Assembly (NCBI GenBank): GCA_036802765.1
Contig: DAIRVP010000002.1
Location: 4,152 to 68,151 of the forward strand
Direction of reading: 5' to 3'
Length of the DNA: 64,000 nt
Source: Candidatus Rokuibacteriota bacterium
GTDB lineage: Bacteria > Methylomirabilota > Methylomirabilia > Rokubacteriales > CSP1-6
The position numbers and the translations under genes were made by a program. Below are positions 1,773 through 62,974 of the stretch, in pieces. The notes beneath the pieces are model-generated. The model made no database searches. It was not told the origin of the DNA and saw only the letters and a list, made by a program, of their open reading frames with translations. Each line of letters begins with the position of its first letter. The first letter of the stretch is position 1.

Positions 1773-1793
1773 CGGCGCTCTGGGCGGACCGGC

Positions 1794-1799: not shown

Positions 1800-1859
1800 A
1801 GATCGGTTGTAAAAGTTTGGGGCCGGCCGGCGCCGGCGGTTAGGATTGGGCCCTTCCTG

Positions 1860-12046: not shown

Positions 12047-12103
12047 GCCGCGGCGCAGTCCTCGGCTGACGCCGCGCCCCGCTTCGGCTATCGTGTCCGG
12101 GCG

Positions 12104-30345: not shown

Positions 30346-30346
30346 G

Positions 30347-30769: not shown

Positions 30770-30772
30770 CGG

Positions 30773-32335: not shown

Positions 32336-32336
32336 G

Positions 32337-33539: not shown

Positions 33540-33557
33540 GCGCGTATTATACGCGCC

Positions 33558-34070
33558 ATGAACGCGTGGGCTTCGGGCGCGGTGCATCCCGCAGGCTTCT
33601 GGGTCCGCCTCGTCGCGTTCGCGATCGATCTGCTCGTCATCGCGCTTGTGCAGCTCGTGCTGCAGGTCATCGCCGCGGCGCGGCTCGGCGATCGCGCGCT
33701 GAGCACCGTCGGGTTCTTCACCTTCGTGTTCGCGGTCGCGTATCCGACGGTTCTGCACTCGATCGCGGGCCAGACGATCGGCAAGCTCATGATGCGCGTG
33801 CGCGTGGTGGCGCTCGACGGCGGCGCATTGCCGCTGGGCGCCTCGTTCCTGCGTGCGGTCGTTTTCTGGGCGGCGCTTCTGTTCACGCTGGGGATCGGCC
33901 AGATCATCGGCGGGCTGCGCAAGGACAAACGGGCCCTTCACGACCTCGTGGCGGGCAGTCGCGCCGAGCGTCTGCCGGGCTCGACCACGGTCCTCGCCGC
34001 GCCGCCGCCGCTCGCATCGCCAGGGTCGTTTGCGCCGCCCCCCGAATCGGGACCGCGCTCGACCGGGTGA
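33558..34070 (+). CDS. RDD-family membrane protein
   Basis: RDD-domain pattern (FWVRLVAFAIDLL...). Divergent from moeA with start codons only 18 nt apart. Confidence 0.6.
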   Translation: MNAWASGAVHPAGFWVRLVAFAIDLLVIALVQLVLQVIAAARLGDRALSTVGFFTFVFAVAYPTVLHSIAGQTIGKLMMRVRVVALDGGALPLGASFLRAVVFWAALLFTLGIGQIIGGLRKDKRALHDLVAGSRAERLPGSTTVLAAPPPLASPGSFAPPPESGPRSTG

Positions 34071-34606
34071 TCCGGACACTGCCGCTGCCGTTGCGCAACC
34101 GTCTCGCGGCAACGATCCTCGAGGCGGTCGCCGATGTGCACGCGCGCCAGACGCTGGCAAGGGTGGCCGAGTCACCGACGACGTGGCTGTCAGCGGATCA
34201 AGCGCAGTGGGCGCCGCTGCTCGCTGCGCGCGCCCGACGCGCGAGCGATGCGCTGTCCGCGCTGCCGCCGTCGGAGAGTCACGGACTCGACGCCGTGCTG
34301 GATGTCGCGGCTCGGCTCTACGAGGCGGCGCTGTACTTCGAAGTACACGAATGGCTGGAGCCGCACTGGGTCACGGCGATCGGGCCTACGCGTGAGGCGT
34401 TGCAGGGATTGATCCAGACGGCGGTGGGCTGGCAGCATCTGGCGAACGACAATGTCGCCGGCGCCCGCTCGCTGCTGACCGAAGGCGCGGCGCGGCTGCG
34501 CGGTCAGCGTCTTGGCGCGCGCGATCTGGACGGCTTCGGACGCGCGACCGCGATGGCCGCGACGCGCCTGCCCGCGGCGGCGCCGCCGCCGTTTCCCGAG
34601 AGGTAA
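34067..34606 (+). CDS. DUF309-domain protein
   Basis: YFEVHEWLEPHW signature. GTG start overlaps the RDD gene stop. Confidence 0.55.
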   Translation: MIRTLPLPLRNRLAATILEAVADVHARQTLARVAESPTTWLSADQAQWAPLLAARARRASDALSALPPSESHGLDAVLDVAARLYEAALYFEVHEWLEPHWVTAIGPTREALQGLIQTAVGWQHLANDNVAGARSLLTEGAARLRGQRLGARDLDGFGRATAMAATRLPAAAPPPFPER

Positions 34607-48775: not shown

Positions 48776-50751
48776 CCACTCTTCCAGGCCAGCACGACCC
48801 ATGCCGCGAGCGCGATCGCGGTGAGCGCGACGCCGGCGATCTCGGGCGGCCCGGGACCGTAGCGGAGCGTCACGGTCTGAGCTGCGCGCGCGAGGCGCAC
48901 CTCCAACAGTCCGTCCGCGCCGCGACGGGTCTGAAGCGGTGTGCCGTCGGCGTCCGCACGCCAGAGCGGATAGTACGCAACGCGCGCGGACGTCCAACCG
49001 CCCGCCTCGCCGGTGAGAGCCACGCGGCCGCCGCCGTCGCGCGCCGACGGCAGCGCCACGGGCGTCTCGCGCGCGAAGACGACGAACGGCGCGAGCGCGA
49101 GTCGGCGACGGAACGCCGTGTTGTCCGTGATCCACGCCAGGTGCATCACGTCGTCCTCCAGCGCGACCACGGCGACCACGCCGAGTCGATCCGTGTGCTC
49201 GCTGAATCGGTCGGCGTCCAGCGTGTCGAGGCTCTCGCCGAAGAGCGAACGCCCATCCAGCCGCTCGGCGAGCTGTGTGATTGCGCCCCGGCCCACGTCG
49301 CCGCGATAGACGAGCGCGGCGATCGGTGAGGGATGCGTGAACGTGCCGTGCACGATGTCGCGGTCGCCGTCGGCCGGCGTCAGCGCAGTCACGTGCGTGT
49401 GAGGACGCCACCAGTCGACGCCGTGAACCAGCGGCACGCCCGAGCGCACGAACAGGATGCGTCCTTCGGGCAGCCGACCCAGCAGGCTCCACAGGTCGGG
49501 CAGCCGAAGTCCCCGCTCGATCGAGATCAGCGACGGCCACATCATCGACGCCGGGCGCAGCATCAGCGTGTCGCCTCGGATCGCGAGGAGCGCGAACAGC
49601 GCCGCAACGACGAGCCCGACGGCCGGCTCACGAAGCCCGATATCGAGAGCACGTGGCAAGGGGAGCGCATCGAGCCGCCGTGTGAGCCGGAGCGCACCGA
49701 CGCCGGCCGCGAAGAGCAGCGCCATCCACGCGCCGTCGACGACACGGTCGGCCGGCAGCCAGCGAATACCGAGCGGCTCCAGCGCGAGCCGATCGAGTGC
49801 GGTCACCGCCACAGCGGCCGGCATCCACCAGAGCGCGAGGCGAGCGCCGGTGCCCGTCGGCGCTCGATCGACCAGGCCGGCGATGGCGAGGGCGATGAGG
49901 ACGATCGGAAGCGGACGCGCCACGTCGGCGAGCGACAGCGTCCCCCAGGCGAGCGCACGCGTCTCGGCCAGACGGAACAGCAGCGGCAGCGTCCAGAATC
50001 CGGTCAGCGCCGCACCGACGCCCACGGCCGTCAGCGCCTCGCGACCGCTCGCGCGCCACGGTGGGCGAAGAAACACGGCCAGCGCGATCAACACCACCGC
50101 GGCCGGCAGCTGGGCGGGATGCAGAAGCGTGACGACGGCCAGGAGAAGCGCGACCGCCGGCGAGAGCGGGCGACGCTCCTCGATCCATCGCACGAGCAGC
50201 GTCAGCAATATCGGGAGCAGTGCCCACGCGAGCCGCGCTCCTACCATTCCGGTTCGCACGCCGCCGTTCACGCCGCTCGCGAGCCCGGCCGACAACGTCA
50301 ACGCGACGAAAGAGAACGGCAACGCCATCCACCGCTGGCCGGTGAGCCGCGTGAGCGCGAGGTACGTCGTGACGCCGGGCAGCAGGTACGCGAGCCAGAG
50401 CAGTCCCTGGTAGACAGTCCGAATATCGAACACACCCGCAGTAGCCCACGCGAGCAGCGCACCGACGTACGCAAACCCCGGCGGATAGAACTGCAGCTCG
50501 GGATAGCCCGCCCACCAGCCGCGGTCCCATGCCCACGGCGCCGGGCCGTACGTGAGCACGTGCCAGACGCGGTAGAGCTGACCGGGGTGATCGTCGAATC
50601 CGAGCATCGCGCCGCCAAGCGTTGCTCCGCCGAACGCGACGCCGAAGCCGACCAGCAGCACGAGCGGGAGCACGAAGCGAGCATACCGCCTTGTATTTCC
50701 CGCTGGATATGCTTTAGTAGCGGAAATCTCTTGCTGTCGGTGCTGTAACAC
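48772..50751 (-). CDS. large polytopic membrane protein (GT-C-like / YfhO-like, uncharacterised)
   Basis: The gene occupies the C-terminal approximately 660 codons of the 1157-aa ORF. The upstream part of that ORF is antisense to thrC. More than 12 TM helices with aromatic-rich loops (YPELQFYPPGFAY). Confidence 0.5.
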   Translation of the reverse strand: MLQHRQQEISATKAYPAGNTRRYARFVLPLVLLVGFGVAFGGATLGGAMLGFDDHPGQLYRVWHVLTYGPAPWAWDRGWWAGYPELQFYPPGFAYVGALLAWATAGVFDIRTVYQGLLWLAYLLPGVTTYLALTRLTGQRWMALPFSFVALTLSAGLASGVNGGVRTGMVGARLAWALLPILLTLLVRWIEERRPLSPAVALLLAVVTLLHPAQLPAAVVLIALAVFLRPPWRASGREALTAVGVGAALTGFWTLPLLFRLAETRALAWGTLSLADVARPLPIVLIALAIAGLVDRAPTGTGARLALWWMPAAVAVTALDRLALEPLGIRWLPADRVVDGAWMALLFAAGVGALRLTRRLDALPLPRALDIGLREPAVGLVVAALFALLAIRGDTLMLRPASMMWPSLISIERGLRLPDLWSLLGRLPEGRILFVRSGVPLVHGVDWWRPHTHVTALTPADGDRDIVHGTFTHPSPIAALVYRGDVGRGAITQLAERLDGRSLFGESLDTLDADRFSEHTDRLGVVAVVALEDDVMHLAWITDNTAFRRRLALAPFVVFARETPVALPSARDGGGRVALTGEAGGWTSARVAYYPLWRADADGTPLQTRRGADGLLEVRLARAAQTVTLRYGPGPPEIAGVALTAIALAAWVVLAWKSG

Positions 50752-50784
50752 TCGGGGCTCAATTCCCCTACCGATGGAGAGGCC

Positions 50785-52032
50785 ATGGCGAAGCTGAAGG
50801 GGTTGAAGTGTCGGGAGTGTGGCCGTCACTATCCCGCGGTCCCCGTTCACGTCTGCGAGTTCTGTTTCGGCCCACTCGAAGTCGACTACCAGTACGAGGC
50901 GCTCAAGGGCGTCGTCACACGCGCATCGATCGCCGCGGGGCCGCCGAGCATGTGGCGCTACAAGGACCTGCTGCCGGTCGAGGGCGACGTGGCGGTGGGC
51001 CACCACGTGGGCTTCACGCCGCTGATCCGGGCGCGGAACCTGGCCGACGAGTTGGGCTGTCGCGAGATCTGGATCAAGAACGATTCCGTCTGCCATCCCA
51101 CGTGGTCGTTCAAGGATCGCGTCGTGTCGGTGGCGGTGACGAAGGCGCGCGAGTTCGGGTTCGACACCGTCGCGTGTGCGTCGACAGGAAACCTGGCCAA
51201 CTCCGTGGCGGCTCACGCGGCCGAGGGCCGGCTGAAGTCCTATATCTTCATCCCGGCCGATCTCGAGCAGGGCAAGGTGCTCGCGACGCTGGTCTACGAT
51301 CCCACGCTCGTCGCCGTTCACGGAACGTACGACGAGGTCAACCGCCTGTGCTCGGAGATCGCGGACAAGTATCGCTGGGCGTTCGTGAACGTGAATTTTC
51401 GGCCGTACTACTCGGAAGGATCGAAGTCGTACGGATTCGAAATCGTCGAACAGCTGGGCTGGCGCACACCGGACCACATCGTCGTGCCGTGCGCAGGCGG
51501 CTCGCTGATCACGAAGATCTGGAAAGCCATCAAGGAGCTGAAGAGCCTCGATCTGCTGGACGGGCCGGTTCGGACGAAGATGCATGCCGCGCAGGCGCTG
51601 GGCTGCGGGCCGATCGTCACGATGATCCGAAATGATACCGACGTGCTGAAGCCGGTGCGCCCGAACACGATTGCCAAGTCGCTGGCCATCGGCAATCCCG
51701 CGGACGGCTATTATGCGTACAGGGCCACGAAGGAGTCCGGCGGCTTCGGCGAGCACGCCACCGACGCTGAAATCATCGAAGCCATGCTGTTGCTGGCGCG
51801 GACGGAAGGGATCTTCACCGAGACGGCCGGCGGTGTGACGCTCGCCGCTGCGAAAAAGCTCATCGAGGCGGGTGTGATCCCGCGCGACGAGTCGGTGGTG
51901 GTGTGCATCACCGGCAATGGGCTCAAGACGCCGGATGCGCTCTATGATCGGCTCGAGGCCCACGTGAAGATCAAACCCTCGCTGTCTGCGTTCGATCGCG
52001 CGCTCGCCGACCTCAAGAACCAGACGAGCTGA
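50785..52032 (+). CDS. thrC: threonine synthase
   Basis: N-terminal Cys4 (CRECG...CEFCFG) and PLP lysine SFKDR, with a TGN glycine loop. Confidence 0.85.
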   Translation: MAKLKGLKCRECGRHYPAVPVHVCEFCFGPLEVDYQYEALKGVVTRASIAAGPPSMWRYKDLLPVEGDVAVGHHVGFTPLIRARNLADELGCREIWIKNDSVCHPTWSFKDRVVSVAVTKAREFGFDTVACASTGNLANSVAAHAAEGRLKSYIFIPADLEQGKVLATLVYDPTLVAVHGTYDEVNRLCSEIADKYRWAFVNVNFRPYYSEGSKSYGFEIVEQLGWRTPDHIVVPCAGGSLITKIWKAIKELKSLDLLDGPVRTKMHAAQALGCGPIVTMIRNDTDVLKPVRPNTIAKSLAIGNPADGYYAYRATKESGGFGEHATDAEIIEAMLLLARTEGIFTETAGGVTLAAAKKLIEAGVIPRDESVVVCITGNGLKTPDALYDRLEAHVKIKPSLSAFDRALADLKNQTS

Positions 52033-52069
52033 CGAGGCGAGCGAAAGACGAAAGACGAAGGAGACCAGA

Positions 52070-52348
52070 ATGCCGGTGACGGTTCGAATTCCAACCCCGC
52101 TGCGACAGGTCACGAAGGGTAACGCCGAGGTGCAGACCAAGGCGGGTACCGTCGACGACGTCGTGGCCGATCTCGAGCGCCAGTTTCCGGGTCTCAAGGA
52201 GCGGCTGGTGGACGACAGCGGTGAGCTGCGTCGCTTCATCAACATCTACGTGAACGAGGAAGACATCCGCTTCATGGACGGCCGCAAGACGACGCTGAAA
52301 GACGGCGACGCGGTGTCCATCGTGCCCGCGATCGCGGGAGGGTGGTAA
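52070..52348 (+). CDS. MoaD/ThiS-family sulfur-carrier-like protein with GG-W C-terminus
   Basis: 92 aa beta-grasp protein ending in ...AIAGGW. A GG motif followed by one extra Trp before the stop. Confidence 0.6.
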   Translation: MPVTVRIPTPLRQVTKGNAEVQTKAGTVDDVVADLERQFPGLKERLVDDSGELRRFINIYVNEEDIRFMDGRKTTLKDGDAVSIVPAIAGGW

Positions 52349-52354
52349 GGACGC

Positions 52355-52603
52355 GTGACGGCCATGACCCGCACGCGAGTGCGGCTCACGTTTCCGCCGA
52401 GCCTGATCCAGGAGCCGATCCTCTATCGGCTGGTGAAGGACTTCGACATCGTCATCAACATCCGCCGCGCTGACGTCAAGGCCGACTACGGCTGGGTCGC
52501 CCTCGAGATGGAGGCGGCCGAGGACACGCTCGATCGTGGCGTGGCGTGGCTCAAAGGCAAAGGCGTGCAGGTCGATCCGATCGAGCGCGACGTGATCGTA
52601 TGA
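52355..52603 (+). CDS. NIL-domain protein
   Basis: Aligns colinearly with the MetN C-terminal NIL domain (LTF..PILYRLVKDFDIVINI..WVALEMEA..GVAWLKGKGVQV). Confidence 0.5.
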   Translation: MTAMTRTRVRLTFPPSLIQEPILYRLVKDFDIVINIRRADVKADYGWVALEMEAAEDTLDRGVAWLKGKGVQVDPIERDVIV

Positions 52604-53775
52604 GCGGCATCTCCCAGCGTGTCCAGGGCTTCACCGAATCCGTCATTCGCGAGATGACGCGTGTTGTGAGCCAGCTCGGTGGCGTGAATCTCGCGCAGGG
52701 GATGCCGAACTTTCCGCCGCCGCGGGAGCTGCTCGAGGCGGCGCATCGGGCGATCGACGGCGACTTTCACCAGTACGCGATCACGTGGGGCACGCCGGCG
52801 CTACGCCGCGCGATCGCGGACAAGTACCGCGCGTTCTACGGCATGGACGTCGATCCCGAACAGCACGTCACGGTCTGCTGCGGCTCGACGGAAACCATGC
52901 TCTCGACGCTATTGGCCGTGCTCAATCCCGGCGACGAGGTCGTCATCTTCGAGCCCTTTTACGAGAACTACGGGCCGGGCTGCATCATTTCCGGCGCCAG
53001 GCCGGTGTGGGTGCCGCTCGAGCCGCCGGATTTCACGTTCGATCCCGATCGCCTCCGCGCGGCGGTGTCGCCGCGCACGAAGGCGATCGTCTTCAACAGC
53101 CCGAACAATCCTTCGGGGAAGGTGTTCTCGCGCGCGGAGCTTCAGACCATCGCCGACGTCTGTCTACAGCACGACCTGCTGGCCATCACGGACGAGATCT
53201 ACGAGCACATCGTGTACGACGGGCACGGCCACACGCCGATCGCGACGCTGCCCGGGATGGCCGAGCGGACGATCACAATCTCGGGGATCTCCAAGTCGTA
53301 CTCCGTCACCGGCTGGCGCGTCGGCTACGCGGTCGCGCCGCCCGAGCTTTCGGTCGGGATCCGCCGGGCGCACGACTTCGTGACCGTCGGCGCGCCGCAT
53401 CCCCTGCAGGAGGCCGCGGTGACCGCGCTTCGATTCCCGGATTCTTACTACGTCGGTCTGCGGGAGGGCTACCAGAAGCGCCGCGACCTGCTGTGGCGCT
53501 ACATCGAGTCGGCGGGGTTCGTCGCGTGGAAGCCGAGCGGCGCGTACTACATCCTCACCGATGCGGGGCGCTTCATGAAGGCGGCGCGCGTGGACGACGA
53601 CTACGCATTTGCGATGTGGCTCATCAAGGAGTGCGGTGTCGCGACCGTCCCCGGCTCGTCGTTTTACGCCCATGCCGAGCTCGGACGCACGAAGATCCGC
53701 TTCTGTTTTCCGAAGACCGACGACATGCTGACGGAAGCGGGAGAGCGCCTACAGAAGCTGCGCACGTTTGCCTGA
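52599..53775 (+). CDS. class I/II pyridoxal-phosphate aminotransferase (methionine/kynurenine-aminotransferase-like)
   Basis: ATGA overlap with the NIL gene. GISKSYSVTGWRVGY PLP-lysine region. Confidence 0.8.
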
Positions 53776-55051
53776 GGCGGCCCGCGAGGCCGCGCTCGCA
53801 ATCTGGCGCGCGGCGCTCGCCGCCGCCGACGTCCCACCCCTCGTCGACCGCGCGCTCGATCGTCTGCCCGTCGATCTGAGGCGTCGGCTTCCGGGCAGGC
53901 TCCTCGTCTTTGGCTGCGGCAAGGCCGGCGGCTCGATGGCGGCGGCGCTCGAGCGTGCGCTCGGTCCGGCGATTACCGAAGGCCTCGTCATCGTCAAGGA
54001 CGGTTACACCGTGCCGACGGAGCGCATCGTCTTGCGAGAAGCCGGCCATCCCGTGCCAGACGCGCGCGGGCAGGCCGCGACCGAAGAGATGATTCGTCGT
54101 GTCCACGCCGCAAAAGCCGACGACCTCATCGTGTTCCTCGTCTCGGGAGGCGGCTCGGCACTGACGCCCGCGCCGGTTCCGCCGATCACGCTCGCGGAAG
54201 AGCAGGAAACGACGCGGCTCTTGCTGGCCGCCGGCGCGACGATCAACGACCTCAATGCGGTGCGCAAGCATCTCTCGTTCTTCAAAGGCGGGCAATTCGC
54301 GCGCGCGGCCGCCCCGGCCACCGTGATGGCGCTGATCCTCTCCGATGTCATCGGCGATCCGCTCGACGTCATCGCGTCCGGGCCAACGGCCCCCGATCCC
54401 ACAACGTTCGCGGATGCGCTCGATGTGCTGCGGCGGCGTGGCGTGATCGCTCGCGTCCCGGCCTCGGTGCGCGCGCGGCTCGACGCCGGCGCGCGCGGCG
54501 AGATTGCGGAGACGCCGAAGCCTGGCGACCCTGTCTTCGAGCACGTGACGAATGTCGTGATCGGCAACAACGCCACCGTCGTGGAGGCGGCCGCCTCACA
54601 GGCGCGACGCTTGGGGTACCGCACCGAGATTCTCACGCGCGAGCTGCAGGGCGAGGCGCGCGACGTCGCGCGTGAGCTCGTTGCGCGTGCGAGGAGCGTG
54701 GCCGCACGCACCTGTCTGATCGCCGGTGGGGAAACGACGGTCACGGTCCGCGGGAGCGGACGCGGAGGCCGCTGTCAGGAGTTCGTCCTCGCGGCGGCGC
54801 TCGAGCTGACGCGCGAGGATCGGCTCGTCGTGCTCGCCGCCGGCACGGACGGCAGCGACGGTCCGACCGATGCGGCCGGCGCCATTGCCGACGCGATCAC
54901 GATCCCGAATGGCGAGCGTTCCGGACGCTCGGCGCGCGCCGCGCTGGACGACAACGACGCGTTTACCTTTCTGTCGAGTGCAGGTGATCTGATCGTGTCG
55001 GGTCCGACCAATACGAACCTGCTCGACGTCTACGTCATGCTGCGCGATTGA
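53768..55051 (+). CDS. glycerate kinase (MOFRL/DUF4147 family)
   Basis: TTG start. LVFGCGKAGGSMA and a C-terminal MOFRL domain (GTDGSDGPTDAAGA). Confidence 0.7.
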   Translation: MPEAAREAALAIWRAALAAADVPPLVDRALDRLPVDLRRRLPGRLLVFGCGKAGGSMAAALERALGPAITEGLVIVKDGYTVPTERIVLREAGHPVPDARGQAATEEMIRRVHAAKADDLIVFLVSGGGSALTPAPVPPITLAEEQETTRLLLAAGATINDLNAVRKHLSFFKGGQFARAAAPATVMALILSDVIGDPLDVIASGPTAPDPTTFADALDVLRRRGVIARVPASVRARLDAGARGEIAETPKPGDPVFEHVTNVVIGNNATVVEAAASQARRLGYRTEILTRELQGEARDVARELVARARSVAARTCLIAGGETTVTVRGSGRGGRCQEFVLAAALELTREDRLVVLAAGTDGSDGPTDAAGAIADAITIPNGERSGRSARAALDDNDAFTFLSSAGDLIVSGPTNTNLLDVYVMLRD

Positions 55052-55198
55052 AGGCAGTCGCCACCGTTCTGCTCATCGCGTGGGCGAAACGCTCTAAGCG
55101 ACCGACATTCCACGCCGTGACGGGAGTTCCGCACACGGTTATCCACGGCTCGCCCACGAAATCGGTGGACGGGCGGATGTAGAGTTTTCTCCCCGGTG

Positions 55199-55217
55199 CC
55201 GCGGACGAATTCCGCGG
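55199..55217. repeat. 7-5-7 inverted repeat CCGCGGA-cgaat-TCCGCGG
   Basis: Perfect palindromic arms in the 190-nt gap between convergent genes. Function unknown. Confidence 0.3.
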
Positions 55218-55241
55218 TGCTATCGGATCGTCATCTCGTCG

Positions 55242-55724
55242 TCAGCGACCAGTACCGGTCGCGCCCCCGAGCGCACCGGCGCCCAGCGGTGATGTCGACG
55301 TCGTCCCGGTCGTTCCGAACGTCGAAGGGCCGGGCAACGCGCCGGTGATCGAGCTTCCGGACTGGAACGGCGTGGCGCCTAGCGTGCCTGGGATACCGCC
55401 AGTGATCGAACCGCCGGAGACGTTCGGCGTGCCGCCGAGCGTGCCGGGAATGCCGCCGGTCATGGACGGAGTGATGACTGGGTTTACCGGGGGAGCGAAG
55501 CCGGGGACCAGCGACGGAGTGACGCTCGGATTGATCGACGGAATGAGCCCCGGCGTCAACGATGGCGTGAGGCTTCCGGTCACCGAGGGACTGATGCCCG
55601 ATGAAATGCCCGGTGAGGTTGCGAACGGGCTCACGGGAGCCTGCGCGAACGCCGGAGCGATGAAGAGTGCGATCGAACCGAGAATCGCCACGAGAAAACT
55701 GAACAACAGCATCTGTGCCTCCAA
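55242..55724 (-). CDS. secreted low-complexity Pro/Ser/Thr/Gly-repeat protein
   Basis: Signal peptide (LLFSFLVAILGSIALFIAPAFA) then degenerate repeats (SPSVTGSLTPSLTPGLIPSINPSVTPSLVPG...GGIPGTLG...). Confidence 0.5.
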   Translation of the reverse strand: MEAQMLLFSFLVAILGSIALFIAPAFAQAPVSPFATSPGISSGISPSVTGSLTPSLTPGLIPSINPSVTPSLVPGFAPPVNPVITPSMTGGIPGTLGGTPNVSGGSITGGIPGTLGATPFQSGSSITGALPGPSTFGTTGTTSTSPLGAGALGGATGTGR

Positions 55725-55864
55725 GACGATCGGATGCTCACATCATGTTGGAGGGCGGTCATGCGTTATAGGGCCGGATGGGCACGCACGACCGCTCGAT
55801 CACGACGCGTCTGAGCGCGCGGCGTGTCGGTTTTGCAAACGATCACCGTGTTATTCTTCGTCCG

Positions 55865-56887
55865 ATGTCCGCTCAGAACCTCGTAGGAATGCTGCCTTCG
55901 GAGATGGAAGACCTCGCGGCAGAGCTCGGCGCGTCGCGCTATCGCGGACGCCAGCTTGCGACATGGATCTATCGCAAGGGTGTCGTGGACCTCGAGGCCA
56001 TGACCGACCTGCCGAAGGAGTTTCGGGCGACACTCGCCGCGCGTGTCGTCTCGCGGCTGCCCGACGTCGAGCGTGAGACGCCGTCGCAGGATGGCAGCCG
56101 CAAGCTCGTGTTCCGGCTCGACGATGGCGCACGGGTGTCGAGCGTGCTGATGCCCGACGATGGGCGCGTCACCCTGTGTCTGTCGACACAGGTCGGCTGT
56201 GGGTATGCATGCGCGTTCTGTCTGACCGGCACCATGGGGCTGACGCGAAACCTCAGCGCGGCCGAGATGGTTGGGCAAGTGCTGAGAGCGAACGCCACCG
56301 AGCACGCCACACACTTGGTGTTCATGGGTATGGGGGAGCCGCTCGCCAACTACGCCGAGGTCCTCAGGACGCTGAAGATCTTGACGGATGCCAAGCTCGG
56401 CTTCGGGTACTCCCCGCGGCGCATCACGGTCTCGACGGTCGGTCTCGTGACCGGTATCGAAAAGCTCGGCCGAGAAAACCTCAAGGTCAATCTCGCGATC
56501 TCGCTGCATGCGGCATCCGACGAGATCCGCTCCCGCCTCATGCCCGTGAATCGCGCCTGGGATCTGGAGGCGTTGATGGGCGCGGTGCGGCGTTATCCGC
56601 TGGCGCCGCGGCAGCGCGTGTTCTTCGAGTACGTGTTGCTCGACGGCGTCAACGACGCGCCCGAGGAGGCGCAGCGTCTCGCGCGCCTCCTGCGCAACAT
56701 CCGCGCGAAGGTCAATCTGATTCCGTTCAACGACTGGCCGGGCGCGGATTTCCGCCGGCCGCCGCTCGCGCGGATTCTGGCCTTCCAGTCGATCCTGCTC
56801 GAGGCCGGCGTCACGACCACCGTGCGCTGGAGCCGAGGTGAAGACATCGGCGCCGCGTGCGGGCAGCTGAAGGAGGCCGTGGCGTGA
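55865..56887 (+). CDS. rlmN: 23S rRNA/tRNA (adenine-C2)-methyltransferase RlmN (radical SAM)
   Basis: CGYACAFC radical-SAM cluster motif plus the conserved RlmN N-terminal domain. Confidence 0.85.
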   Translation: MSAQNLVGMLPSEMEDLAAELGASRYRGRQLATWIYRKGVVDLEAMTDLPKEFRATLAARVVSRLPDVERETPSQDGSRKLVFRLDDGARVSSVLMPDDGRVTLCLSTQVGCGYACAFCLTGTMGLTRNLSAAEMVGQVLRANATEHATHLVFMGMGEPLANYAEVLRTLKILTDAKLGFGYSPRRITVSTVGLVTGIEKLGRENLKVNLAISLHAASDEIRSRLMPVNRAWDLEALMGAVRRYPLAPRQRVFFEYVLLDGVNDAPEEAQRLARLLRNIRAKVNLIPFNDWPGADFRRPPLARILAFQSILLEAGVTTTVRWSRGEDIGAACGQLKEAVA

Positions 56888-58215
56888 GTCGCCGCGTTGC
56901 CTTCGCCACGCTCGGCTGTCGCGTGAACCAGGTGGACACGCAGCAACTCCAGGCAGCCCTCGAGGCACGCGGGTTCTCCACGGTCCCGTTCGGAGCCGCG
57001 GCCGACGTGGTCATCGTCAACACCTGCACGGTCACGGCGCGCGCCGAAGTCTCCGACCGGCAGGCGATCCGGCGTGCGCGCCGCGCCAATCCTGAGGCTC
57101 GTGTCGTCGTGACCGGTTGCTGGGCACAGACGAGCGCGGATGAGGTTGCCCGCGAGGTGGGCGTGGACCTCGTGGTCGGCAACGCCGACAAGCCTCGGCT
57201 CCCGCTGCTGGTGGAGGAAGTGCTTCTCGCTCGTCGCGGATCGGCGCGCCTGGAGGTCGGCGACCTGCGTCACGCGCGGATCGCCAGTGATCCCCCCGCG
57301 CGTGCGCCGGGGCGCTCCCGTGCGTTCATCAAGGTTCAGGACGGTTGTCAGCACCGGTGCGCGTTCTGCATCGTCCCGCACGCCCGAGGTGAAAGCCGCA
57401 GCCTCGATCTACTCCGCGTGGTCGATCAGGTGCGCGGGCTCGTCGACGGCGGGCACGCCGAGGTGACGCTCACCGGCGTCGACCTCGGTCATTACGGCGC
57501 GGATCTGGTGCCGCGTACGTCGCTGGCGGCGTTGCTGCGCGCGCTCGTCGACATTCCGGGGCTCCGCTGGCTGCGCCTGTCCTCGATGCTGCCCGCGTAC
57601 TTCACCGGCGACGTCCTGGACATCGTTACGAGCGCGCCGACGATCGCGCCGCACTTCCACGTGCCGCTTCAAAGCGGCAGCGACCGCGTGCTGCGCGCAA
57701 TGCGGCGGCCGTACACGGTGGCGATGTATCGGGCGGTCGTCGAGCGCCTGGCGCGCGCCATTCCACGGTTGGGCCTGGGCGCGGACGTGATCGCCGGCTT
57801 TCCCAGCGAGGGCACGGACGACGCGGCCGCCACACAGGCGCTCATCGAGGCGCTGCCGTTCACGTACCTGCACGTGTTTCCGTACTCCGATCGCAACGGA
57901 ACGGAGGCGGTCACGCGACCCGGTCATATCGACCGGGCGACGAGCGCGCATCGCGCGGCGCGCCTGCGTGCGGTCGGCGCGGCGAAGGCCCTGGCGTTCC
58001 GACAGGCGCTGGTCGGCCGCACAGAAGACGTGCTGGTGCTCGAGACGCGCGACCGCGCGACGGGTGGGTTGGTGGGACTCACGGGAAATTACGTCGAGGT
58101 CGTGTTCGAAGGGCCGGACGCGCTCATGCGCCGCACAGCGCGTGTGCGACTGCTCGCTGCCGACGCGGGCGTGCGCGGTGAGCTCGTGGGGTCGGCGGAG
58201 CGCGTGCCGGCATGA
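56884..58215 (+). CDS. MiaB/RimO-family radical-SAM methylthiotransferase (MtaB-like)
   Basis: MTTase N-domain (VAFATLGCRVNQ...NTCTVT), radical SAM CQHRCAFC and a C-terminal TRAM domain. GTGA overlap with rlmN. Confidence 0.8.
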   Translation: MSRRVAFATLGCRVNQVDTQQLQAALEARGFSTVPFGAAADVVIVNTCTVTARAEVSDRQAIRRARRANPEARVVVTGCWAQTSADEVAREVGVDLVVGNADKPRLPLLVEEVLLARRGSARLEVGDLRHARIASDPPARAPGRSRAFIKVQDGCQHRCAFCIVPHARGESRSLDLLRVVDQVRGLVDGGHAEVTLTGVDLGHYGADLVPRTSLAALLRALVDIPGLRWLRLSSMLPAYFTGDVLDIVTSAPTIAPHFHVPLQSGSDRVLRAMRRPYTVAMYRAVVERLARAIPRLGLGADVIAGFPSEGTDDAAATQALIEALPFTYLHVFPYSDRNGTEAVTRPGHIDRATSAHRAARLRAVGAAKALAFRQALVGRTEDVLVLETRDRATGGLVGLTGNYVEVVFEGPDALMRRTARVRLLAADAGVRGELVGSAERVPA

Positions 58216-59147
58216 ACGGCGCCATCGGGATCATCGGGGGCAGCGGGCTCTATGAGCTGGAAGGCTTGACGAACATTCGCTGGCGTCGCGTCCGCACGCC
58301 GTTCGGCGATCCCTCCGACGAGTTCTGCACCGGTGACTTCGACGGGCGACCGGTCGTCTTCCTGCCGCGGCACGGCCGCGGGCATCGCCTCACACCGACG
58401 GAGCTGAACTTCCGCGCCAACGTGTGGGGGCTGAAGTCGCTAGGGGTGGAGTGGATCATCTCGGTGTCGGCCGTCGGGAGCATGAAAGAGGACGTCCGGC
58501 CGCTCGACCTGGTGATCCCCGACCAGTTCGTGGATCTGACCAAGCGCCGCGTCTCCTCGTTCTTCGGCGATGGTATCGTCGCCCACGTCGGCATGGCGGA
58601 GCCCGTGTGCGGCCAGCTGGCCGACCGGCTCGAAAAGGCCGCGCGCGAGACCGCCAGTCGCGTGCATCGCGGCGGCACGTACGTGTGCATCGAAGGTCCG
58701 CAGTTCTCGACACGCGCGGAGTCGCGCATCTACCGCTCGTGGGGCGTCGACGTGATCGGCATGACGAACATGCCGGAGGCGAAGCTGGCGCGTGAGGCGG
58801 AGCTCTGCTACGCGACGCTCGCGTTGGCCACGGACTACGACGTCTGGCACGACACGCACGCCGCCGTCAGCGTCGAGGCCGTGGTGGCGAATCTCCTCAA
58901 GAACGTGGCGACCGCGAAGCAGGTACTCCGAACCGTCATCCCGACGATCGGTGGCGCACGGGAATGTGAGTGCCCGCGGCTGCTCGAGAGCGCGGTGATC
59001 ACGAACCCTTCGGCGTTTCCCCACGCCACGCGCCGCCGCCTCGATCTGCTGATCGGGAAGTATTTCCCGCTCGACAAGCGGAGTCGGGTCGCGCCTAAGT
59101 CAGGCCACCCGCGACGCAAGCCGGGCTCGCGGACGCCGCTACAATGA
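58212..59147 (+). CDS. mtnP: S-methyl-5'-thioadenosine phosphorylase
   Basis: IGIIGGSGL motif and a PNP/MTAP fold. Carries an approximately 40-aa basic C-terminal extension. Confidence 0.85.
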   Translation: MNGAIGIIGGSGLYELEGLTNIRWRRVRTPFGDPSDEFCTGDFDGRPVVFLPRHGRGHRLTPTELNFRANVWGLKSLGVEWIISVSAVGSMKEDVRPLDLVIPDQFVDLTKRRVSSFFGDGIVAHVGMAEPVCGQLADRLEKAARETASRVHRGGTYVCIEGPQFSTRAESRIYRSWGVDVIGMTNMPEAKLAREAELCYATLALATDYDVWHDTHAAVSVEAVVANLLKNVATAKQVLRTVIPTIGGARECECPRLLESAVITNPSAFPHATRRRLDLLIGKYFPLDKRSRVAPKSGHPRRKPGSRTPLQ

Positions 59148-60133: not shown

Positions 60134-60964
60134 ATGGACGTGGCTCTCGACGCCAAATATGCGCGGCTGCTCGAGACGATCCGCGAGCTGGAGAGCGTTG
60201 TGGTCGCGTTCTCCGGCGGGGTGGACTCGACACTCCTGGCGCGCGCGGCCAAGGATGCACTCGGCGAGCGTGCCGTCCTCGTCACGGCCGATTCGGAGAC
60301 GTATCCGGAAGGTGAGCTGCTCGAGGCCAAGCGCCTCGCTGCACTGATCGGGCTGCGCCACGTGGTGGTCCGTACCGATGAGCTGGCGAATCCGGAGTAT
60401 GCCGCGAACGGCGCCAACCGCTGCTTCTTCTGCAAAGAGGAGCTGTTCACGCACCTGGCGCCGGTCGCCGAGCGGGAGGGCTGCCGCGCGCTCGTGTACG
60501 GCGCGAACGTTGACGATCTCGGCGATCACCGACCTGGGATGCGCTCAGCGAGGGAACGTGGCGTACGCGCGCCGATGATCGACGCGGGACTGACGAAGCA
60601 GGAGATCCGCGATCTCTCTCGGACCCTGGGCCTGCCGACGTGGGACAAGCCATCCTTCGCGTGCCTGTCGTCGCGCTTTCAGTACGGCGACCGCATCACG
60701 GCCGAGAACCTCCGCCGCGTCGACGCCGCCGAAGCGTTTTTGAAATCGCTCGGCTTCCGTCAGTTCCGCGTGCGGCACCACGATCGTCTGGCTCGGCTCG
60801 AGATCGCACGGGACGAGATGCCGCAGCTCTGGGTCGACGGCCGTCACGACGCCATCGTGGCTCGCTTCCGCGAGCTGGGGTACGTGTATGTCGCGGTAGA
60901 TCTCGCCGGCCTGCAGTCCGGCTCGGCGAACCTCGTGTTGAAACTGGGAAGAGCCCAACCGTGA
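60134..60964 (+). CDS. larE: LarE, ATP-dependent sacrificial sulfur transferase (PP-loop)
   Basis: PP-loop VVAFSGGVDS motif and a sacrificial-Cys motif (FACLSSRF). Confidence 0.8.
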   Translation: MDVALDAKYARLLETIRELESVVVAFSGGVDSTLLARAAKDALGERAVLVTADSETYPEGELLEAKRLAALIGLRHVVVRTDELANPEYAANGANRCFFCKEELFTHLAPVAEREGCRALVYGANVDDLGDHRPGMRSARERGVRAPMIDAGLTKQEIRDLSRTLGLPTWDKPSFACLSSRFQYGDRITAENLRRVDAAEAFLKSLGFRQFRVRHHDRLARLEIARDEMPQLWVDGRHDAIVARFRELGYVYVAVDLAGLQSGSANLVLKLGRAQP

Positions 60965-61719
60965 ATCCCGAAACGCTGCGCACATTGCTGGACGCCGTGG
61001 CCGCCGGTCGCGTGACGGCCGCCGACGCGATGGCGCGTCTGCGCGACCTTCCGTACGCCGATCTCGGCTTTGCGAAGGTCGATCTGCACCGCGAGCTGCG
61101 CGCGGGCGCGGCCGAAGCGGTGTTCTGTCCCGGCAAGACGCCTGCCCAGGTCGTGGCGATTCTGCAGCGACTCGTGGTCGACCACGCGAACGTTCTGGCC
61201 ACACGCGCGGACGACGCCGTGCTCGGCGCTGTGGTCGCCGCCGGCGTGCCGCACGCATGGCATCCCCTCGCTCGACTCATCGTCGCGCGGCCGGAGCCTC
61301 GCGACGGCGTCGGTCTGATCGTGGTGGCCGCCGCCGGAACGGCCGATCTGCCCGTGGCCGAGGAGGCGGCGATGGTGGCCGAGGCGCTCGGCAATCGTGT
61401 TGAGCGCGTGACGGACTGCGGCGTGGCCGGCCTGCACCGGCTGCTGGCGCATCGCGAGCTTCTGTCGGAGGCGAACGTCATTGTCGCCGTCGCGGGGATG
61501 GAGGGCGCGCTCCCGAGCGTGATCGGCGGTCTCGTCGATCGGCCCGTGATCGCTGTGCCGACCAGCATTGGCTACGGCACCTCGCTCAATGGGCTCGCGG
61601 CGCTGTTGGCGATGCTGAACTCGTGCGCCCCCGGCATCTCCGTGGTCAATATCGACAATGGCTACGGCGCGGCGCACCAGGCGAGTCAGATCAATCGGCT
61701 CGTCGCCAAGATCCGCTGA
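60961..61719 (+). CDS. larB: LarB, pyridinium-3,5-biscarboxylic acid mononucleotide synthase (PurE-like)
   Basis: GTGA overlap with larE. N-terminal LarB-specific region plus a PurE/AIR-carboxylase-like domain (VAGMEGALPSVIGG). Confidence 0.8.
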   Translation: MNPETLRTLLDAVAAGRVTAADAMARLRDLPYADLGFAKVDLHRELRAGAAEAVFCPGKTPAQVVAILQRLVVDHANVLATRADDAVLGAVVAAGVPHAWHPLARLIVARPEPRDGVGLIVVAAAGTADLPVAEEAAMVAEALGNRVERVTDCGVAGLHRLLAHRELLSEANVIVAVAGMEGALPSVIGGLVDRPVIAVPTSIGYGTSLNGLAALLAMLNSCAPGISVVNIDNGYGAAHQASQINRLVAKIR

Positions 61720-61783
61720 GCGCGGCGCCGATGAGCGTCGCATGACGTCGTCGACCTTCCGCCGATGAGCGTCGCGAACTGAG

Positions 61784-62974
61784 ATGTCGCGCGTCATCTA
61801 CTTCGACTGCCCAAGCGGGGCGGCGGGCGACATGATCATGGCCGCGCTGGTCGACGCGGGGGCGCCGTTCGAAGCGTTGCGCGAGGGCCTGCACGGGCTC
61901 GATCTCGGCGGATGGGACCTCGTCCGGCACGAAGTCCGCCGCGGTGATTTTCGCGCCACGAAAGTCGACGTCGAGATCGACGCGGCAGCGCACCATCACC
62001 ATCGCGGCCTCGGCGACATCCTCGCCATTCTCGACCGCAGCCGTCTGGCAGCATCCGTGGCGGAAAGCGCGCGGCGCATTTTCGAGCGTCTCGCCCAAGC
62101 CGAAGCACGGGTGCACGGCACCACGCCCGAGCACGTGCGCTTTCACGACGTCGGCGCGGTCGACGCGATCGTCGACGTCACGGGCGGGGTGCTCGGCATG
62201 CACCTGCTCGGAATCGATACGGTCTACGTCTCGCCGCTGCCGCTCGGCGGCGGCTTCGTCGACGGACCGCACGGGCGGATGCCGATTCCGGGGCCCGGGA
62301 CGGTCGAGCTCCTGCGCGGCTTTCCAGTCGTCGACACGGGAGTCCGGTTCGAGCTCGTGACGCCGACGGGCGCGGCGATCCTGACCACGCTCGCGCGCCC
62401 GGCGATGCGTCCGCCCGCCATGACGCTCGGCGCGGTGGGTTACGGCGCGGGCACGCGGGATCTGCCTGGCACACCGAACGTGCTGCGCTGCTTCGTCGGC
62501 GAAACGATGGACGCCTCGGGCGCGATCGAGACGATCGTGCAAGTCGAGACGACGATCGACGACATGTCGCCGCAGCTGTACGAGCCGCTCGTCGACCGGC
62601 TATTCGAGGCGGGTGCGCTCGACGTCTTTCTCACGCCGGTCGTGATGAAGCGAAGCCGTCCGGGGACGGTCCTCACCGCGCTCTGCGCGCCCGCCCGCGT
62701 CGGCGAGCTCTGCCGTGTTCTCTTCGAGGAGTCCTCCACGATCGGCGTGCGCTGGTCCGAGTGGCGCCGTGTCGCCCTGCCGCGTGAGATCGTGACGCTC
62801 GACACGAGCCACGGACCGATTCCCTTCAAGGTCTCGCGACTGGAGGGACGCGTCGTTACGGTGACCCCGGAGTTCGCCGATGTCGCCCGCATCGCGAGAG
62901 AGAAATCACTCCCCGTGCGCGAGGTGCTGGATCAGGCGCGCGCGGAGGGCCGCCGACTACTGTCCGCCCGTTGA
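61784..62974 (+). CDS. larC: LarC, nickel-pincer nucleotide Ni-insertase (DUF111)
   Basis: N-terminal VIYFDCPSGAAGDMIMAAL motif and the bipartite LarC architecture. Confidence 0.8.
   Translation: MSRVIYFDCPSGAAGDMIMAALVDAGAPFEALREGLHGLDLGGWDLVRHEVRRGDFRATKVDVEIDAAAHHHHRGLGDILAILDRSRLAASVAESARRIFERLAQAEARVHGTTPEHVRFHDVGAVDAIVDVTGGVLGMHLLGIDTVYVSPLPLGGGFVDGPHGRMPIPGPGTVELLRGFPVVDTGVRFELVTPTGAAILTTLARPAMRPPAMTLGAVGYGAGTRDLPGTPNVLRCFVGETMDASGAIETIVQVETTIDDMSPQLYEPLVDRLFEAGALDVFLTPVVMKRSRPGTVLTALCAPARVGELCRVLFEESSTIGVRWSEWRRVALPREIVTLDTSHGPIPFKVSRLEGRVVTVTPEFADVARIAREKSLPVREVLDQARAEGRRLLSAR

Follow-up and report, generated by a model that had tools for sequence, protein, structure and literature searches.

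In the CysO-CysM-Mec-MoeZ pathway of Mycobacterium tuberculosis, a protein thiocarboxylate serves a PLP enzyme that acts on a phospho-ester substrate, together with a JAMM hydrolase and a shared E1. In the HcyS system of Wolinella succinogenes (HcyS-HcyD-HcyF-MetY) and the QbsE/QbsD system of Pseudomonas fluorescens, a JAMM protein removes the residue or residues that follow the Gly-Gly (GG) of the carrier before thiocarboxylation, and the peptidase and the E1 are encoded in the same cluster. The product of the HcyS system is homocysteine, made with the O-acetylhomoserine sulfhydrylase MetY, while the QbsE system uses a quinolobactin enzyme; neither enzyme has the ThrC fold, and we know of no NIL domain in either system. 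A carrier can also be joined to its partner, as in MoaX of M. tuberculosis, a fused MoaD-MoaE that is cleaved after Gly-Gly.

The described system most like the locus reported here is MetM/MetO of Streptomyces albulus (Hasebe et al. 2024, Appl Environ Microbiol 90:e01247-24). MetM is reported to be a ThrC-fold PLP enzyme that forms homocysteine from O-phosphohomoserine and the MetO thiocarboxylate, and the metM gene to be preceded by a SAM riboswitch; the reported identities are 33% between MetM and ThrC of Bacillus subtilis, and 51.6% (enzyme) and 47% (carrier) between cyanobacterial homologues and the S. albulus proteins. GapMind lists MetM as a ThrC homologue that has MetO as its carrier, operates with Mec and MoeZ, and is often misannotated as threonine synthase. 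For the Microcystis homologue, a published study reports threonine synthase activity as well as deaminase activity and, in vivo, no clear role as a MetM. As for the NIL domain, the N295A mutation in MetN abolishes L-Met binding, and the domain has been proposed to mediate methionine inhibition of L-ASST, an unrelated homocysteine-forming enzyme.

We analyzed a 64-kb stretch of DNA (the window), from a Methylomirabilota (Rokubacteria)-like bacterium, that carries a ThrC-like gene followed by a sulfur-carrier gene and a gene for a stand-alone NIL domain. An initial annotation had named these three and an aminotransferase gene, and an ORF check of the window found all four on the + strand at the expected coordinates. 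They are given here with two genes further downstream:

50785..52032, + strand: predicted MetM-like homocysteine synthase, a ThrC-fold PLP enzyme of 415 aa
52070..52348, + strand: MetO-like sulfur carrier, a ThiS/MoaD beta-grasp protein of 92 aa ending AIAGGW
52355..52603, + strand: NIL-domain protein that stands alone; 82 aa if translated from GTG 52355, 79 aa if from ATG 52364
52600..53775, + strand: class I/II aminotransferase of the methionine/kynurenine-aminotransferase type, 391 aa (Aminotran_1_2, E 6e-64)
53768..55051, + strand: glycerate-kinase-like protein (DUF4147 and MOFRL Pfam matches)
58212-59147: MTAP (mtnP; TIGR01694, 320 bits, exceeding the cut-off)

We consider it likely that this locus encodes a MetM/MetO-type protein-thiocarboxylate-dependent homocysteine synthase, with the NIL protein as its dedicated methionine-responsive third component.

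The enzyme has a PALP domain (E 2.4e-69) and an N-terminal four-Cys zinc ribbon of the NinF type in Pfam, made up of C9, C12, C24 and C27 (nt 50809-50865), and its catalytic lysine is K110 within SFKDR. K110 is invariant, and the four ribbon cysteines are conserved, across 35 diverse homologues of the enzyme. Its PDB matches are true ThrC proteins that span only residues 53-401 (57-391 in the best match), leaving the ribbon unmatched. On the thrC model TIGR00260 the enzyme scores 277.7 bits against a cut-off of 167.1, but this model does not separate the two paralogues, with true ThrC scoring 333 bits; NF006050 gives 279.1 bits, below its cut-off of 303, and cysteine synthase models give only ~36 bits. 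In three related loci (L012, L018 and L026), a true ThrC that lacks the Zn ribbon and scores those 333 bits lies beside the block. The initial annotation had raised the question of whether the ThrC-like protein groups with true ThrC: it is 59-62% identical to carrier-linked homologues versus 36-37% to the true ThrC of the same loci, and by sequence comparison it is probably a separate paralogue of the housekeeping threonine synthase. The enzyme is also 57-59% identical to its cyanobacterial homologues, and it is through these that we linked the window proteins, indirectly, to S. albulus MetM/MetO.

Conservation of the block, on which the earlier reading of this locus had been staked, held in a survey of 80 loci from more than 10 phyla (Nitrospirota, Planctomycetota, Chloroflexota, Verrucomicrobiota, Cyanobacteria, Actinomycetota and others), with enzymes 55-78% identical to that of the window. 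A MetO-like gene adjoins the enzyme gene on the same strand in 70 of the 80, so that the ThrC-like/carrier pair is kept in many phyla. Directly upstream of the enzyme gene, 11 of the 29 loci scanned have a SAM-I riboswitch (65-96 bits); none was found in the window. Genes with an E1 motif are clustered with the block on the same strand in 24 of 80 loci and JAMM genes in 19 of 80, and one locus (L033) encodes a MetO-E1 fusion. CysK/CysM-type genes co-cluster with the block in ~25 related loci, and there the carrier may serve both the cysteine and the homocysteine pathway. In their source records, homologues bear the names 'threonine synthase', 'molybdopterin synthase sulfur carrier subunit' and 'ubiquitin-like small modifier protein 1' (NCBI).

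The carrier belongs to the ThiS family (Pfam, E 1.6e-16), and the 37-nt spacer that separates its gene from the enzyme gene contains a GGAG ribosome-binding site. Its last codons, gga ggg tgg taa, read G-G-W-stop, with G90-G91 at 52337-52342, the cap residue W92 at 52343-52345 and the TAA stop at 52346-52348. That this is a GG terminus masked by one extra residue, as first proposed from the window alone, is borne out by its close homologues: among the nearest 120, all at least 78% identical, 112 end in GG plus one variable residue (R in 88, C in 6, Q in 6, V in 5, G in 2, H in 2, and D, W and A in 1 each) and 6 in a bare GG. The GG+1 terminus is not due to chance. Among the diverse loci, ~22 have tails of 1-7 residues after the GG. 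The best solved relatives of the carrier are M. tuberculosis CysO (3dwg_C, E 5e-24) and the A. orientalis ThiS/MoaD protein 4n6e_B; the best PDB match named as a molybdopterin-synthase small subunit reaches E 3.6e-12, compared with E 5e-24 for CysO. The carrier scores barely above the cut-off on TIGR01687 moaD_arch (52.7 versus 49.5) and 64.5 bits on NF041918 SAMP1, for which the cut-off is 60.

The initial annotation had seen neither an E1-like activator nor a JAMM protease nearby, and this is true of the whole 64-kb window. Pfam scans of all codon-bias-supported ORFs in the window returned no ThiF, JAB or MoaE; the E1 motif D..SNL.RQ occurs in none of its six-frame ORFs, and none of its ORFs matches an HMM built from the JAMM genes of related loci. 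The window yielded no gene of the CysM type, and its scans no DUF39. A MoeA gene lies 18 kb upstream of the block.

The third gene encodes a NIL domain (PF09383, E 2e-15) and no other domain, and the protein has no conserved Cys. Its AlphaFold model (pLDDT 91) adopts a beta-alpha-beta-beta-alpha-beta fold whose top matches are the C2 domains of MetN (TM 0.89, rmsd 1.2 A to 3tui_C), and its profile matches residues 269-339 of E. coli MetN (E 2e-8). The Asn of its NIR motif aligns with MetN N295 and is conserved, with Asp in its place in some lineages. As both the fold and this Asn match the methionine-binding MetN C2 domain, we propose that the NIL protein may be a methionine-responsive partner. 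Identity is 82-99% among 120 relatives and 27-72% across phyla, where the conserved positions include P18, I33, R34 and A36. The JGI label 'L-aspartate semialdehyde sulfurtransferase ferredoxin' carried by NIL homologues is an over-annotation. In that enzyme (L-ASST) the NIL subunit is fused to a 4Fe-4S ferredoxin domain and paired with a COG1900/DUF39 protein; the window protein, 79-82 aa long and made up of NIL only, was rejected as such a subunit, given the lack of a ferredoxin domain, of conserved Cys and of DUF39 in the window scans.

NIL adjoins MetM/MetO in 47 of the 80 loci (40 of 68 when only loci with 2.6 kb or more of downstream sequence are counted), and a reverse search starting from NIL, in a sample dominated by close relatives, found the enzyme upstream in 52 of 52 loci. 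In the window the NIL ORF begins 6 nt past the MetO stop, in the same reading frame and with one stop codon between; the distance from MetO stop to NIL start ranges from -19 to +6 nt in ~20 loci, and the frame of NIL relative to MetO is not conserved. In 8 loci the two are a single MetO-GG-linker-NIL ORF, with NIL directly after the GG of MetO, and JAMM is present in 7 of the 7 fusion loci with enough flank, compared with 12 of 72 others (Fisher p 1.7e-5). Chloroflexota have the order enzyme-NIL-carrier, in which NIL precedes MetO. With 47 loci and 8 fusions to MetO, the NIL neighbor pointed out in the initial annotation is more than incidental, and the gene fusion suggests that NIL works physically with MetO.

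NIL was absent from all 7 cyanobacterial loci sampled and is missing from most Actinomycetota, including the group in which the pathway was characterized, so it is not essential for the chemistry. It was also absent, except for one distant copy, from all 3 riboswitch-bearing loci labelled Actinomycetota/Actinomycetes. NIL and a SAM riboswitch coexist in several loci (L040, L046, L075, L015, L031 and L035); NIL is therefore not simply a riboswitch substitute. In most bacterial phyla sampled, NIL seems to be a conserved third partner and is the most consistently linked extra component. We found no description in the literature of a NIL partner of the MetM/MetO pathway.

The genes that follow NIL have a narrower distribution. 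The aminotransferase ORF is listed from 52546, and its translation likely begins at ATG 52600; this codon shares an ATGA with the NIL stop, in support of the translational coupling noted earlier. Its best NCBIfam models all fall below cut-off (PRK07777, 399 versus 553; the methionine aminotransferase model PRK09082, 343 versus 420), and PF01053 (Cys_Met_Meta_PP, the family of O-acetylhomoserine sulfhydrylases) gives only a sub-threshold match. An aminotransferase follows NIL in 48 of the 56 metagenome loci whose downstream sequence was long enough and, within the survey, only in Methylomirabilota-type loci (L001-L011). The end of the aminotransferase gene lies within the glycerate-kinase-like gene, which is kept together with the block in Methylomirabilota only (L001-L011 and the metagenome loci); the NCBIfam glycerate 2-kinase models score its product below their cut-offs. 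Of the methionine-salvage genes originally named downstream, mtnP stands, while the supposed adenosine kinase, encoded by the next gene, is a PfkB-family kinase for which no model reached its cut-off. The idea that the set forms one system is borne out for the enzyme, carrier and NIL; the aminotransferase and the mtnP/kinase genes accompany the block only in Methylomirabilota, and their part in the system is putative. The aminotransferase is a lineage-specific neighbor whose assignment to the system is putative.

Several other explanations of the locus were considered. If an ordinary threonine synthase happened to lie beside MoaD, the small subunit of molybdopterin synthase, with NIL unrelated to either, the above-cut-off scores on TIGR00260 and moaD_arch, the threonine synthase and molybdopterin synthase names of homologues, and the MoeA gene upstream would all be expected. 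Such an accident does not explain why enzyme and carrier remain neighbors in 70 of the 80 loci, across many phyla, why SAM riboswitches control the orthologues or why three loci have a distinct true ThrC next to the block, and misannotation of MetM as threonine synthase is frequent according to GapMind. A moaE gene, which the initial annotation had named as a sign of ordinary molybdopterin synthase, was sought and is absent from the window, and CysO is a nearer relative of the carrier than the best PDB match named as a molybdopterin-synthase small subunit; we rejected MoaD as its identity. This explanation has largely been refuted already, and we give it next to no credence. We also give very little to a role for the carrier primarily as a ubiquitin-like modifier in SAMP-type conjugation. 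Its SAMP1 score exceeds the cut-off, NCBI applies the small-modifier name, and the JAMM genes of related loci weakly match the desampylase model (76 bits versus a cut-off of 130), yet the SAMP1 model was built from archaeal proteins and the carrier shares a tight, conserved operon, controlled by a SAM riboswitch, with a PLP enzyme of sulfur amino-acid metabolism. A dual use of the carrier for sulfur transfer and modification is conceivable, but nothing that we found requires it.

Closeness to CysO, together with the CysK/CysM-type genes that co-cluster with ~25 related blocks, could instead mean that the carrier passes sulfur to O-phosphoserine and that the ThrC-like enzyme is a cysteine synthase. 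We regard this as highly unlikely: the adjacent enzyme is ThrC-type and barely registers on cysteine synthase models, the window yielded no CysM-type gene, such regulation as is visible is by SAM, the methionine end product, and the characterized homologue uses O-phosphohomoserine. An assignment to the HcyS/HcyD/HcyF/MetY type was rejected, since the adjacent enzyme is PALP/ThrC-type and the window holds no JAMM or E1. A last alternative concerns NIL, which might be a removable C-terminal pro-piece of MetO, a long cap left behind as a separate, functionless ORF. The 8 fusions straight after GG with JAMM nearby would fit, as would the in-frame MetO and NIL ORFs of the window with one stop codon between them. 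It is unlikely, however, because the separate gene is strongly conserved both among close relatives and across phyla while its frame with respect to MetO varies, the protein keeps the MetN C2 fold and the methionine-binding Asn, and in Chloroflexota NIL precedes MetO and cannot be its tail.

The earlier proposal of a thiocarboxylate-dependent sulfur amino-acid step, with a masked carrier and with E1 and JAMM encoded elsewhere, fits all of the findings and is supported. From the observed gene content, conservation, fusions, riboswitch linkage and fold, and by analogy with Streptomyces MetM/MetO and mycobacterial CysM/CysO, we infer the following chemistry, ligand binding and direction of regulation. 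MetO would be synthesized with a one-residue cap (W) beyond its Gly-Gly end; a Mec-type JAMM peptidase, its gene outside the window, would strip the cap, and a MoeZ-type E1, also encoded elsewhere, would adenylate the exposed Gly for conversion to the thiocarboxylate. The ThrC-fold enzyme would then eliminate phosphate from O-phospho-L-homoserine and add the thiocarboxylate sulfur of MetO at the gamma carbon, and the homocysteine released would be methylated to methionine. NIL may respond to methionine and, when it is abundant, hold back its partner MetO or MetM; as O-phosphohomoserine is also the threonine precursor, such control would act at a branch point. A more specific proposal, which we advance tentatively and at somewhat short of an even chance, is that in most phyla with the pathway NIL is a stoichiometric third subunit that binds methionine (or homocysteine) and gates MetO or MetM, providing protein-level feedback at the O-phosphohomoserine branch point, and that in several lineages a MetO-GG-NIL polyprotein is cut by the neighboring JAMM, which would parallel, in bacteria, the processing of ubiquitin-fusion precursors by deubiquitinases.

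MetM/MetO is known from experiment only in Streptomyces, and our survey points to a wide distribution of the route in Nitrospirota, Planctomycetota, Chloroflexota, Verrucomicrobiota, Methylomirabilota and others. Annotation pipelines mislabel these genes as 'threonine synthase' plus 'molybdopterin synthase subunit', 'ubiquitin-like modifier' or 'FeS-binding protein', and correcting the labels changes what is predicted about methionine prototrophy in many uncultured bacteria of soil and groundwater. With the NIL partner the route gains a concrete component that can be tested. If it senses methionine, it would explain how O-phosphohomoserine is split between threonine and methionine where there is no riboswitch, and one domain function would extend across three unrelated systems, MetN, L-ASST and MetM/MetO. 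The MetO-NIL and MetO-E1 fusions with JAMM neighbors are natural substrates for studies of ubiquitin-like carrier processing.

Compared with S. albulus MetM/MetO, the window has the same pairing of a ThrC-homologous PLP enzyme with an adjoining small ThiS/MoaD-type carrier, a predicted Mec-type maturation and MoeZ-type E1 that are encoded elsewhere in both, and a true ThrC about one-third identical to the enzyme (33% there, 36-37% here). A SAM riboswitch precedes metM, as it does some orthologues of the window enzyme gene, but not the window gene itself, and the locus adds a NIL gene tightly coupled to the carrier as well as the Methylomirabilota-specific aminotransferase and glycerate-kinase neighbors. 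The M. tuberculosis CysO pathway follows the same logic with a closely homologous carrier, but here the partner enzyme is ThrC-type, the expected substrate is O-phosphohomoserine rather than O-phosphoserine, and the carrier is capped where CysO, in the alignment, ends in a bare GG. The extra residue after GG is shared with HcyS and QbsE. The MetO-NIL and MetO-E1 fusions resemble MoaX in joining a carrier at its GG to a working partner, although NIL is a domain with no known catalytic role and in the window the two are separate genes. Finally, the window NIL is of the same family and fold as MetN C2 and the NIL-ferredoxin subunit of L-ASST (MA1822 type), retains the Asn needed by MetN for L-Met binding and, like them, occurs in a context of methionine or homocysteine supply; unlike them, it is a free-standing protein of ~80 aa, with neither ABC ATPase nor ferredoxin, whose partner is a ubiquitin-like sulfur carrier.

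Four ORFs, all in one direction, occupy positions 50785-53775 of the window, which the names given by sources and a base composition of about 68% G+C assign to Methylomirabilota/Rokubacteria:

50785-52032: gene 1, ThrC-like enzyme of 415 aa (PALP domain, E 2.4e-69; TIGR00260 (thrC), 277.7 bits)
52070-52348: gene 2, carrier of 92 aa, ThiS family
GTG 52355 or ATG 52364 as start: gene 3, NIL protein of 82 aa (79 aa), a NIL domain alone (E 2e-15)
ATG at 52600 as start: gene 4, class I/II aminotransferase of 391 aa

The carrier gene begins 37 nt after the enzyme gene with a GGAG site ahead of it, and its final codons read G-G-W-stop. The NIL gene (GTG 52355) starts 6 nt past this stop, and the aminotransferase ATG overlaps the NIL stop codon (ATGA). 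ORFs, domains and last codons all confirmed the four-gene arrangement and the GG-W end described in the initial annotation. The enzyme has a four-cysteine ribbon N-terminal of its PALP domain. In the PDB, the carrier's closest relative was Mycobacterium tuberculosis CysO (E 5e-24), and the top match named as a molybdopterin-synthase small subunit had an E value of 3.6e-12.

A SAM riboswitch is described upstream of Streptomyces albulus metM; MetM is reported to be only 33% identical to Bacillus subtilis ThrC, and a Microcystis homologue pair 51.6% identical to MetM and 47% to MetO. MetM is described as a threonine-synthase homologue, "often misannotated as such," that converts O-phosphohomoserine to homocysteine with the thiocarboxylate of MetO, which is matured by Mec and loaded with sulfur by MoeZ (Hasebe et al. 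2024, Appl Environ Microbiol 90:e01247-24). A homologue search over 1.84 billion representatives yielded diverse full-length enzymes that share the N-terminal Cys4 ribbon, and an alignment of 12 homologues, used as the query, recovered 80 loci in GTDB species genomes with enzymes 55-78% identical. These loci include Nitrospirota, Nitrospinota, Planctomycetota, Verrucomicrobiota, Chloroflexota, Cyanobacteria, Actinomycetota, Thermodesulfobacteriota, Omnitrophota, Elusimicrobia and others; their gene content was determined by profile searches of six-frame ORFs. A MetO-like gene adjoins the enzyme gene on the same strand in 70 of the 80 loci (61 of the 68 with at least 2.6 kb downstream), so the enzyme/carrier block is conserved in relatives. 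ThiF/MoeB-type E1 activator genes cluster with the block in 24/80 loci and Prok-JAB (JAMM) peptidase genes in 19/80, with further additions of CysK/CysM-type genes (about 25 loci), TusA (6) and Rrf2 regulators (6).

Three loci (L012, L018 and L026) have a second, ribbon-less PALP gene after the block, with 333 bits on the thrC model. With these second PALP proteins the window enzyme shares 36-37% identity, versus 59-62% with the carrier-linked enzymes of the same loci, which places it with the latter when its ThrC-like grouping is checked. Of 29 loci scanned, 11 have a SAM-I riboswitch (RF00162, 65-96 bits) directly 5' of the enzyme gene and on the same strand; the genomes are of Actinomycetota, Chloroflexota, Verrucomicrobiota, Acidiferrales and Thermodesulfobacteriota type. 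Their position upstream of orthologues ties the enzyme family to methionine/SAM supply, not threonine. By its ThrC-type enzyme and the genes found in the window, the locus is not a CysM, MetY or MoaE system. Judged from these comparisons rather than from direct alignment with the S. albulus proteins, the pair is most probably a MetM/MetO-type homocysteine synthase, and the thiocarboxylate-dependent sulfur amino-acid step that had been suggested fits this family by gene context in the 80 loci. The catalytic chemistry would be that of the Streptomyces and mycobacterial systems, by analogy.

The public names of the three proteins disagree with one another and mostly mislead: the enzyme appears as "threonine synthase," the carrier as "molybdopterin synthase sulfur carrier subunit" or "ubiquitin-like small modifier protein 1," and the NIL protein as "FeS-binding protein," "ABC-type methionine transport system ATPase subunit" or "L-aspartate semialdehyde sulfurtransferase ferredoxin." All matches in a search with an actinomycete enzyme (L082) were to uncultured Actinomycetota/Acidimicrobiia and carried the label "threonine synthase."

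To look for the activating and maturing partners, we scanned every ORF backed by codon-position G+C bias against Pfam, and searched all six-frame ORFs with the E1 signature D..SNL.RQ and a JAMM HMM from related loci. Neither E1, JAMM nor MoaE was found across the 64-kb window, which extends the earlier remark that no E1 or JAMM is visible nearby to its full length. Rfam gave no family across the window at gathering level, and in the sequence 5' of the enzyme gene neither a SAM riboswitch nor any other family appeared with E relaxed to 10; the intergenic space there is only about 50 nt. A promoter/terminator scan of 50400-55900 was uninformative.

Among the carrier's 120 closest homologues, 112 have one further residue after the GG and 6 stop at the GG itself. 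This extra residue varies within the 112 (R, C, Q, V, G, H, D, W or A), as expected for a removable cap. In the diverse loci, about 40 carriers end in bare GG, about 22 have 1-7 unrelated extra residues, 8 run on into a NIL domain and 1 into an E1 domain. Because of these extensions beyond GG, a JAMM peptidase would be needed in many lineages, this one included, and it is often encoded elsewhere. The single E1 case, locus L033 ("uncultured Actinomycetota bacterium"; 11226-12290 and 12294-12539), has the carrier fused past GG to a full ThiF/MoeB-type E1, followed by separate NIL and JAMM genes.

A NIL gene lies beside the pair on the same strand in 47/80 loci, usually in the order enzyme-carrier-NIL (enzyme-NIL-carrier in Chloroflexota). 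In about 20 loci the NIL domain begins between -19 and +6 nt of the carrier stop codon. It is absent from all 7 cyanobacterial loci sampled, and three riboswitch-bearing loci labelled Actinomycetota/Actinomycetes have no adjacent NIL, though one has a distant copy. Five cyanobacterial loci (L063, L069, L080, L087 and L090) have no NIL, riboswitch, E1 or JAMM near the pair, and several carry an additional weak MetO-like ORF 1.8-2.6 kb ahead of the enzyme gene. When metagenome contigs were searched in the reverse direction, starting from NIL, the enzyme gene was upstream in 52/52 matches with at least 1.7 kb upstream, a consistent but narrow result, since the alignment used was narrow and the matches were mostly close relatives. 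Eight loci, drawn from four or more phyla, encode ...PAIAGG, a linker of 1-20 residues and NIL in a single ORF, one of them at L015 11158-11787, and a JAMM gene is present at 7/7 fusion loci with enough flank versus 12/72 other loci (Fisher p 1.7e-5). As with MoaX, a MoaD-MoaE fusion to which the same reasoning applies, the fusions argue that NIL acts physically with MetO. Two further arrangements were seen. A Nitrospinaceae locus (L054, 14424-15029) encodes, 3 kb away from the pair, a protein with two NIL domains in tandem, and a Dehalococcoidia locus (L048, 5106-8927) contains three MetO paralogues alongside E1 and JAMM genes and two genes of cysteine-synthase-like type.

The NIL protein is 82-99% identical among 120 relatives and 27-72% across phyla, where the comparison revealed no conserved cysteine. 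AlphaFold predicts a beta-alpha-beta-beta-alpha-beta domain (pLDDT 91) whose best solved matches are all C2 domains of the methionine importer ATPase MetN (TM 0.89, rmsd 1.2 A), followed by ACT and PII-type regulatory domains. The profile aligns gap-free to Escherichia coli MetN residues 269-339 (E 2e-8), and the Asn of its "NIR" motif aligns with MetN N295; the N295A substitution abolishes L-methionine binding and trans-inhibition. The modelled fold and conserved Asn argue that NIL binds an amino acid. The ferredoxin subunit of L-aspartate-semialdehyde sulfurtransferase, an unrelated homocysteine-forming enzyme, likewise contains a NIL domain, and methionine inhibition via NIL has been proposed for it. 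Based on the fusions, fold and Asn, we tentatively propose that NIL may be a methionine-responsive partner restraining the carrier or enzyme, a role we hold possible with somewhat less than even confidence.

Two other explanations were considered. That NIL simply substitutes for the riboswitch was rejected, as 6 NIL loci carry a riboswitch too. The other was programmed read-through. In the window the carrier stop TAA is followed by the NIL ORF in the same frame (52346-52364; GGW-stop-GR-VTAMTRT), a layout resembling the MetO-NIL fusions of other phyla interrupted by a single stop codon. Frames are near random across loci (16/14/13) and differ even among close relatives, and read-through was rejected. 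Since relatives do not keep this frame, we regard the single in-frame stop as a chance arrangement or a gene-fission trace.

Only Methylomirabilota-type loci (L001-L011 and 48/56 metagenome loci) have the aminotransferase gene and the glycerate-kinase-like gene after NIL. The aminotransferase resembles methionine/kynurenine aminotransferases, yet falls under every curated cut-off; its overlap with the NIL stop supports the translational coupling noted earlier. Of the methionine-salvage genes placed about 4 kb downstream, MTAP was found at 4.4 kb, past rlmN and mtaB, but the kinase is of the PfkB family and its "adenosine" specificity was not borne out. A role of these neighbours in methionine recycling is plausible, though unsupported by conservation outside this lineage. 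A 160-aa Pro/Thr/Gly/Ser-rich ORF without family match (55242-55724, - strand) sits between the glycerate-kinase-like gene and rlmN, which are 0.7 kb apart; close relatives have a 656-aa Na+/H+ exchanger-TrkA gene there. Directly after the PfkB kinase, in an order kept in L001-L005, three consecutive genes (60134-62974, +) look like a nickel-pincer cofactor set:

60134-60964, +: LarE-like PP-loop ATPase
60961-61719, +: LarB-like AIR-carboxylase-family protein
61784-62974, +: LarC, nickel insertion protein (E 4e-135)

Elsewhere in the window, a stand-alone homocysteine S-methyltransferase (12047-13048, +; PF02574, E 1e-36), 38 kb upstream of the homocysteine-synthesis genes, could provide the next step to methionine. 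There are two TldD/PmbA metallopeptidase pairs (1773-4651, +; 28786-32809, -), the second split by a 90-aa rhodanese-like ORF (30503-30772) and adjoined by MoeA (32340-34370, -), whose ORF has about 278 extra N-terminal residues.

Homocysteine synthesis by MetM/MetO is already a known pathway; what seems new here is that a NIL component is widespread, that it can be fused to the carrier's GG end and that JAMM is strictly co-located with these fusions. We found no description in the literature searched pairing NIL with ThiS/MetO, thiocarboxylates or sulfur carriers, and the NIL variant is directly testable. Compared with S. albulus MetM/MetO, the window block lacks the riboswitch, its carrier has a one-residue cap and a NIL partner is present; the locus is most probably a member of the MetM/MetO system and would work like it.
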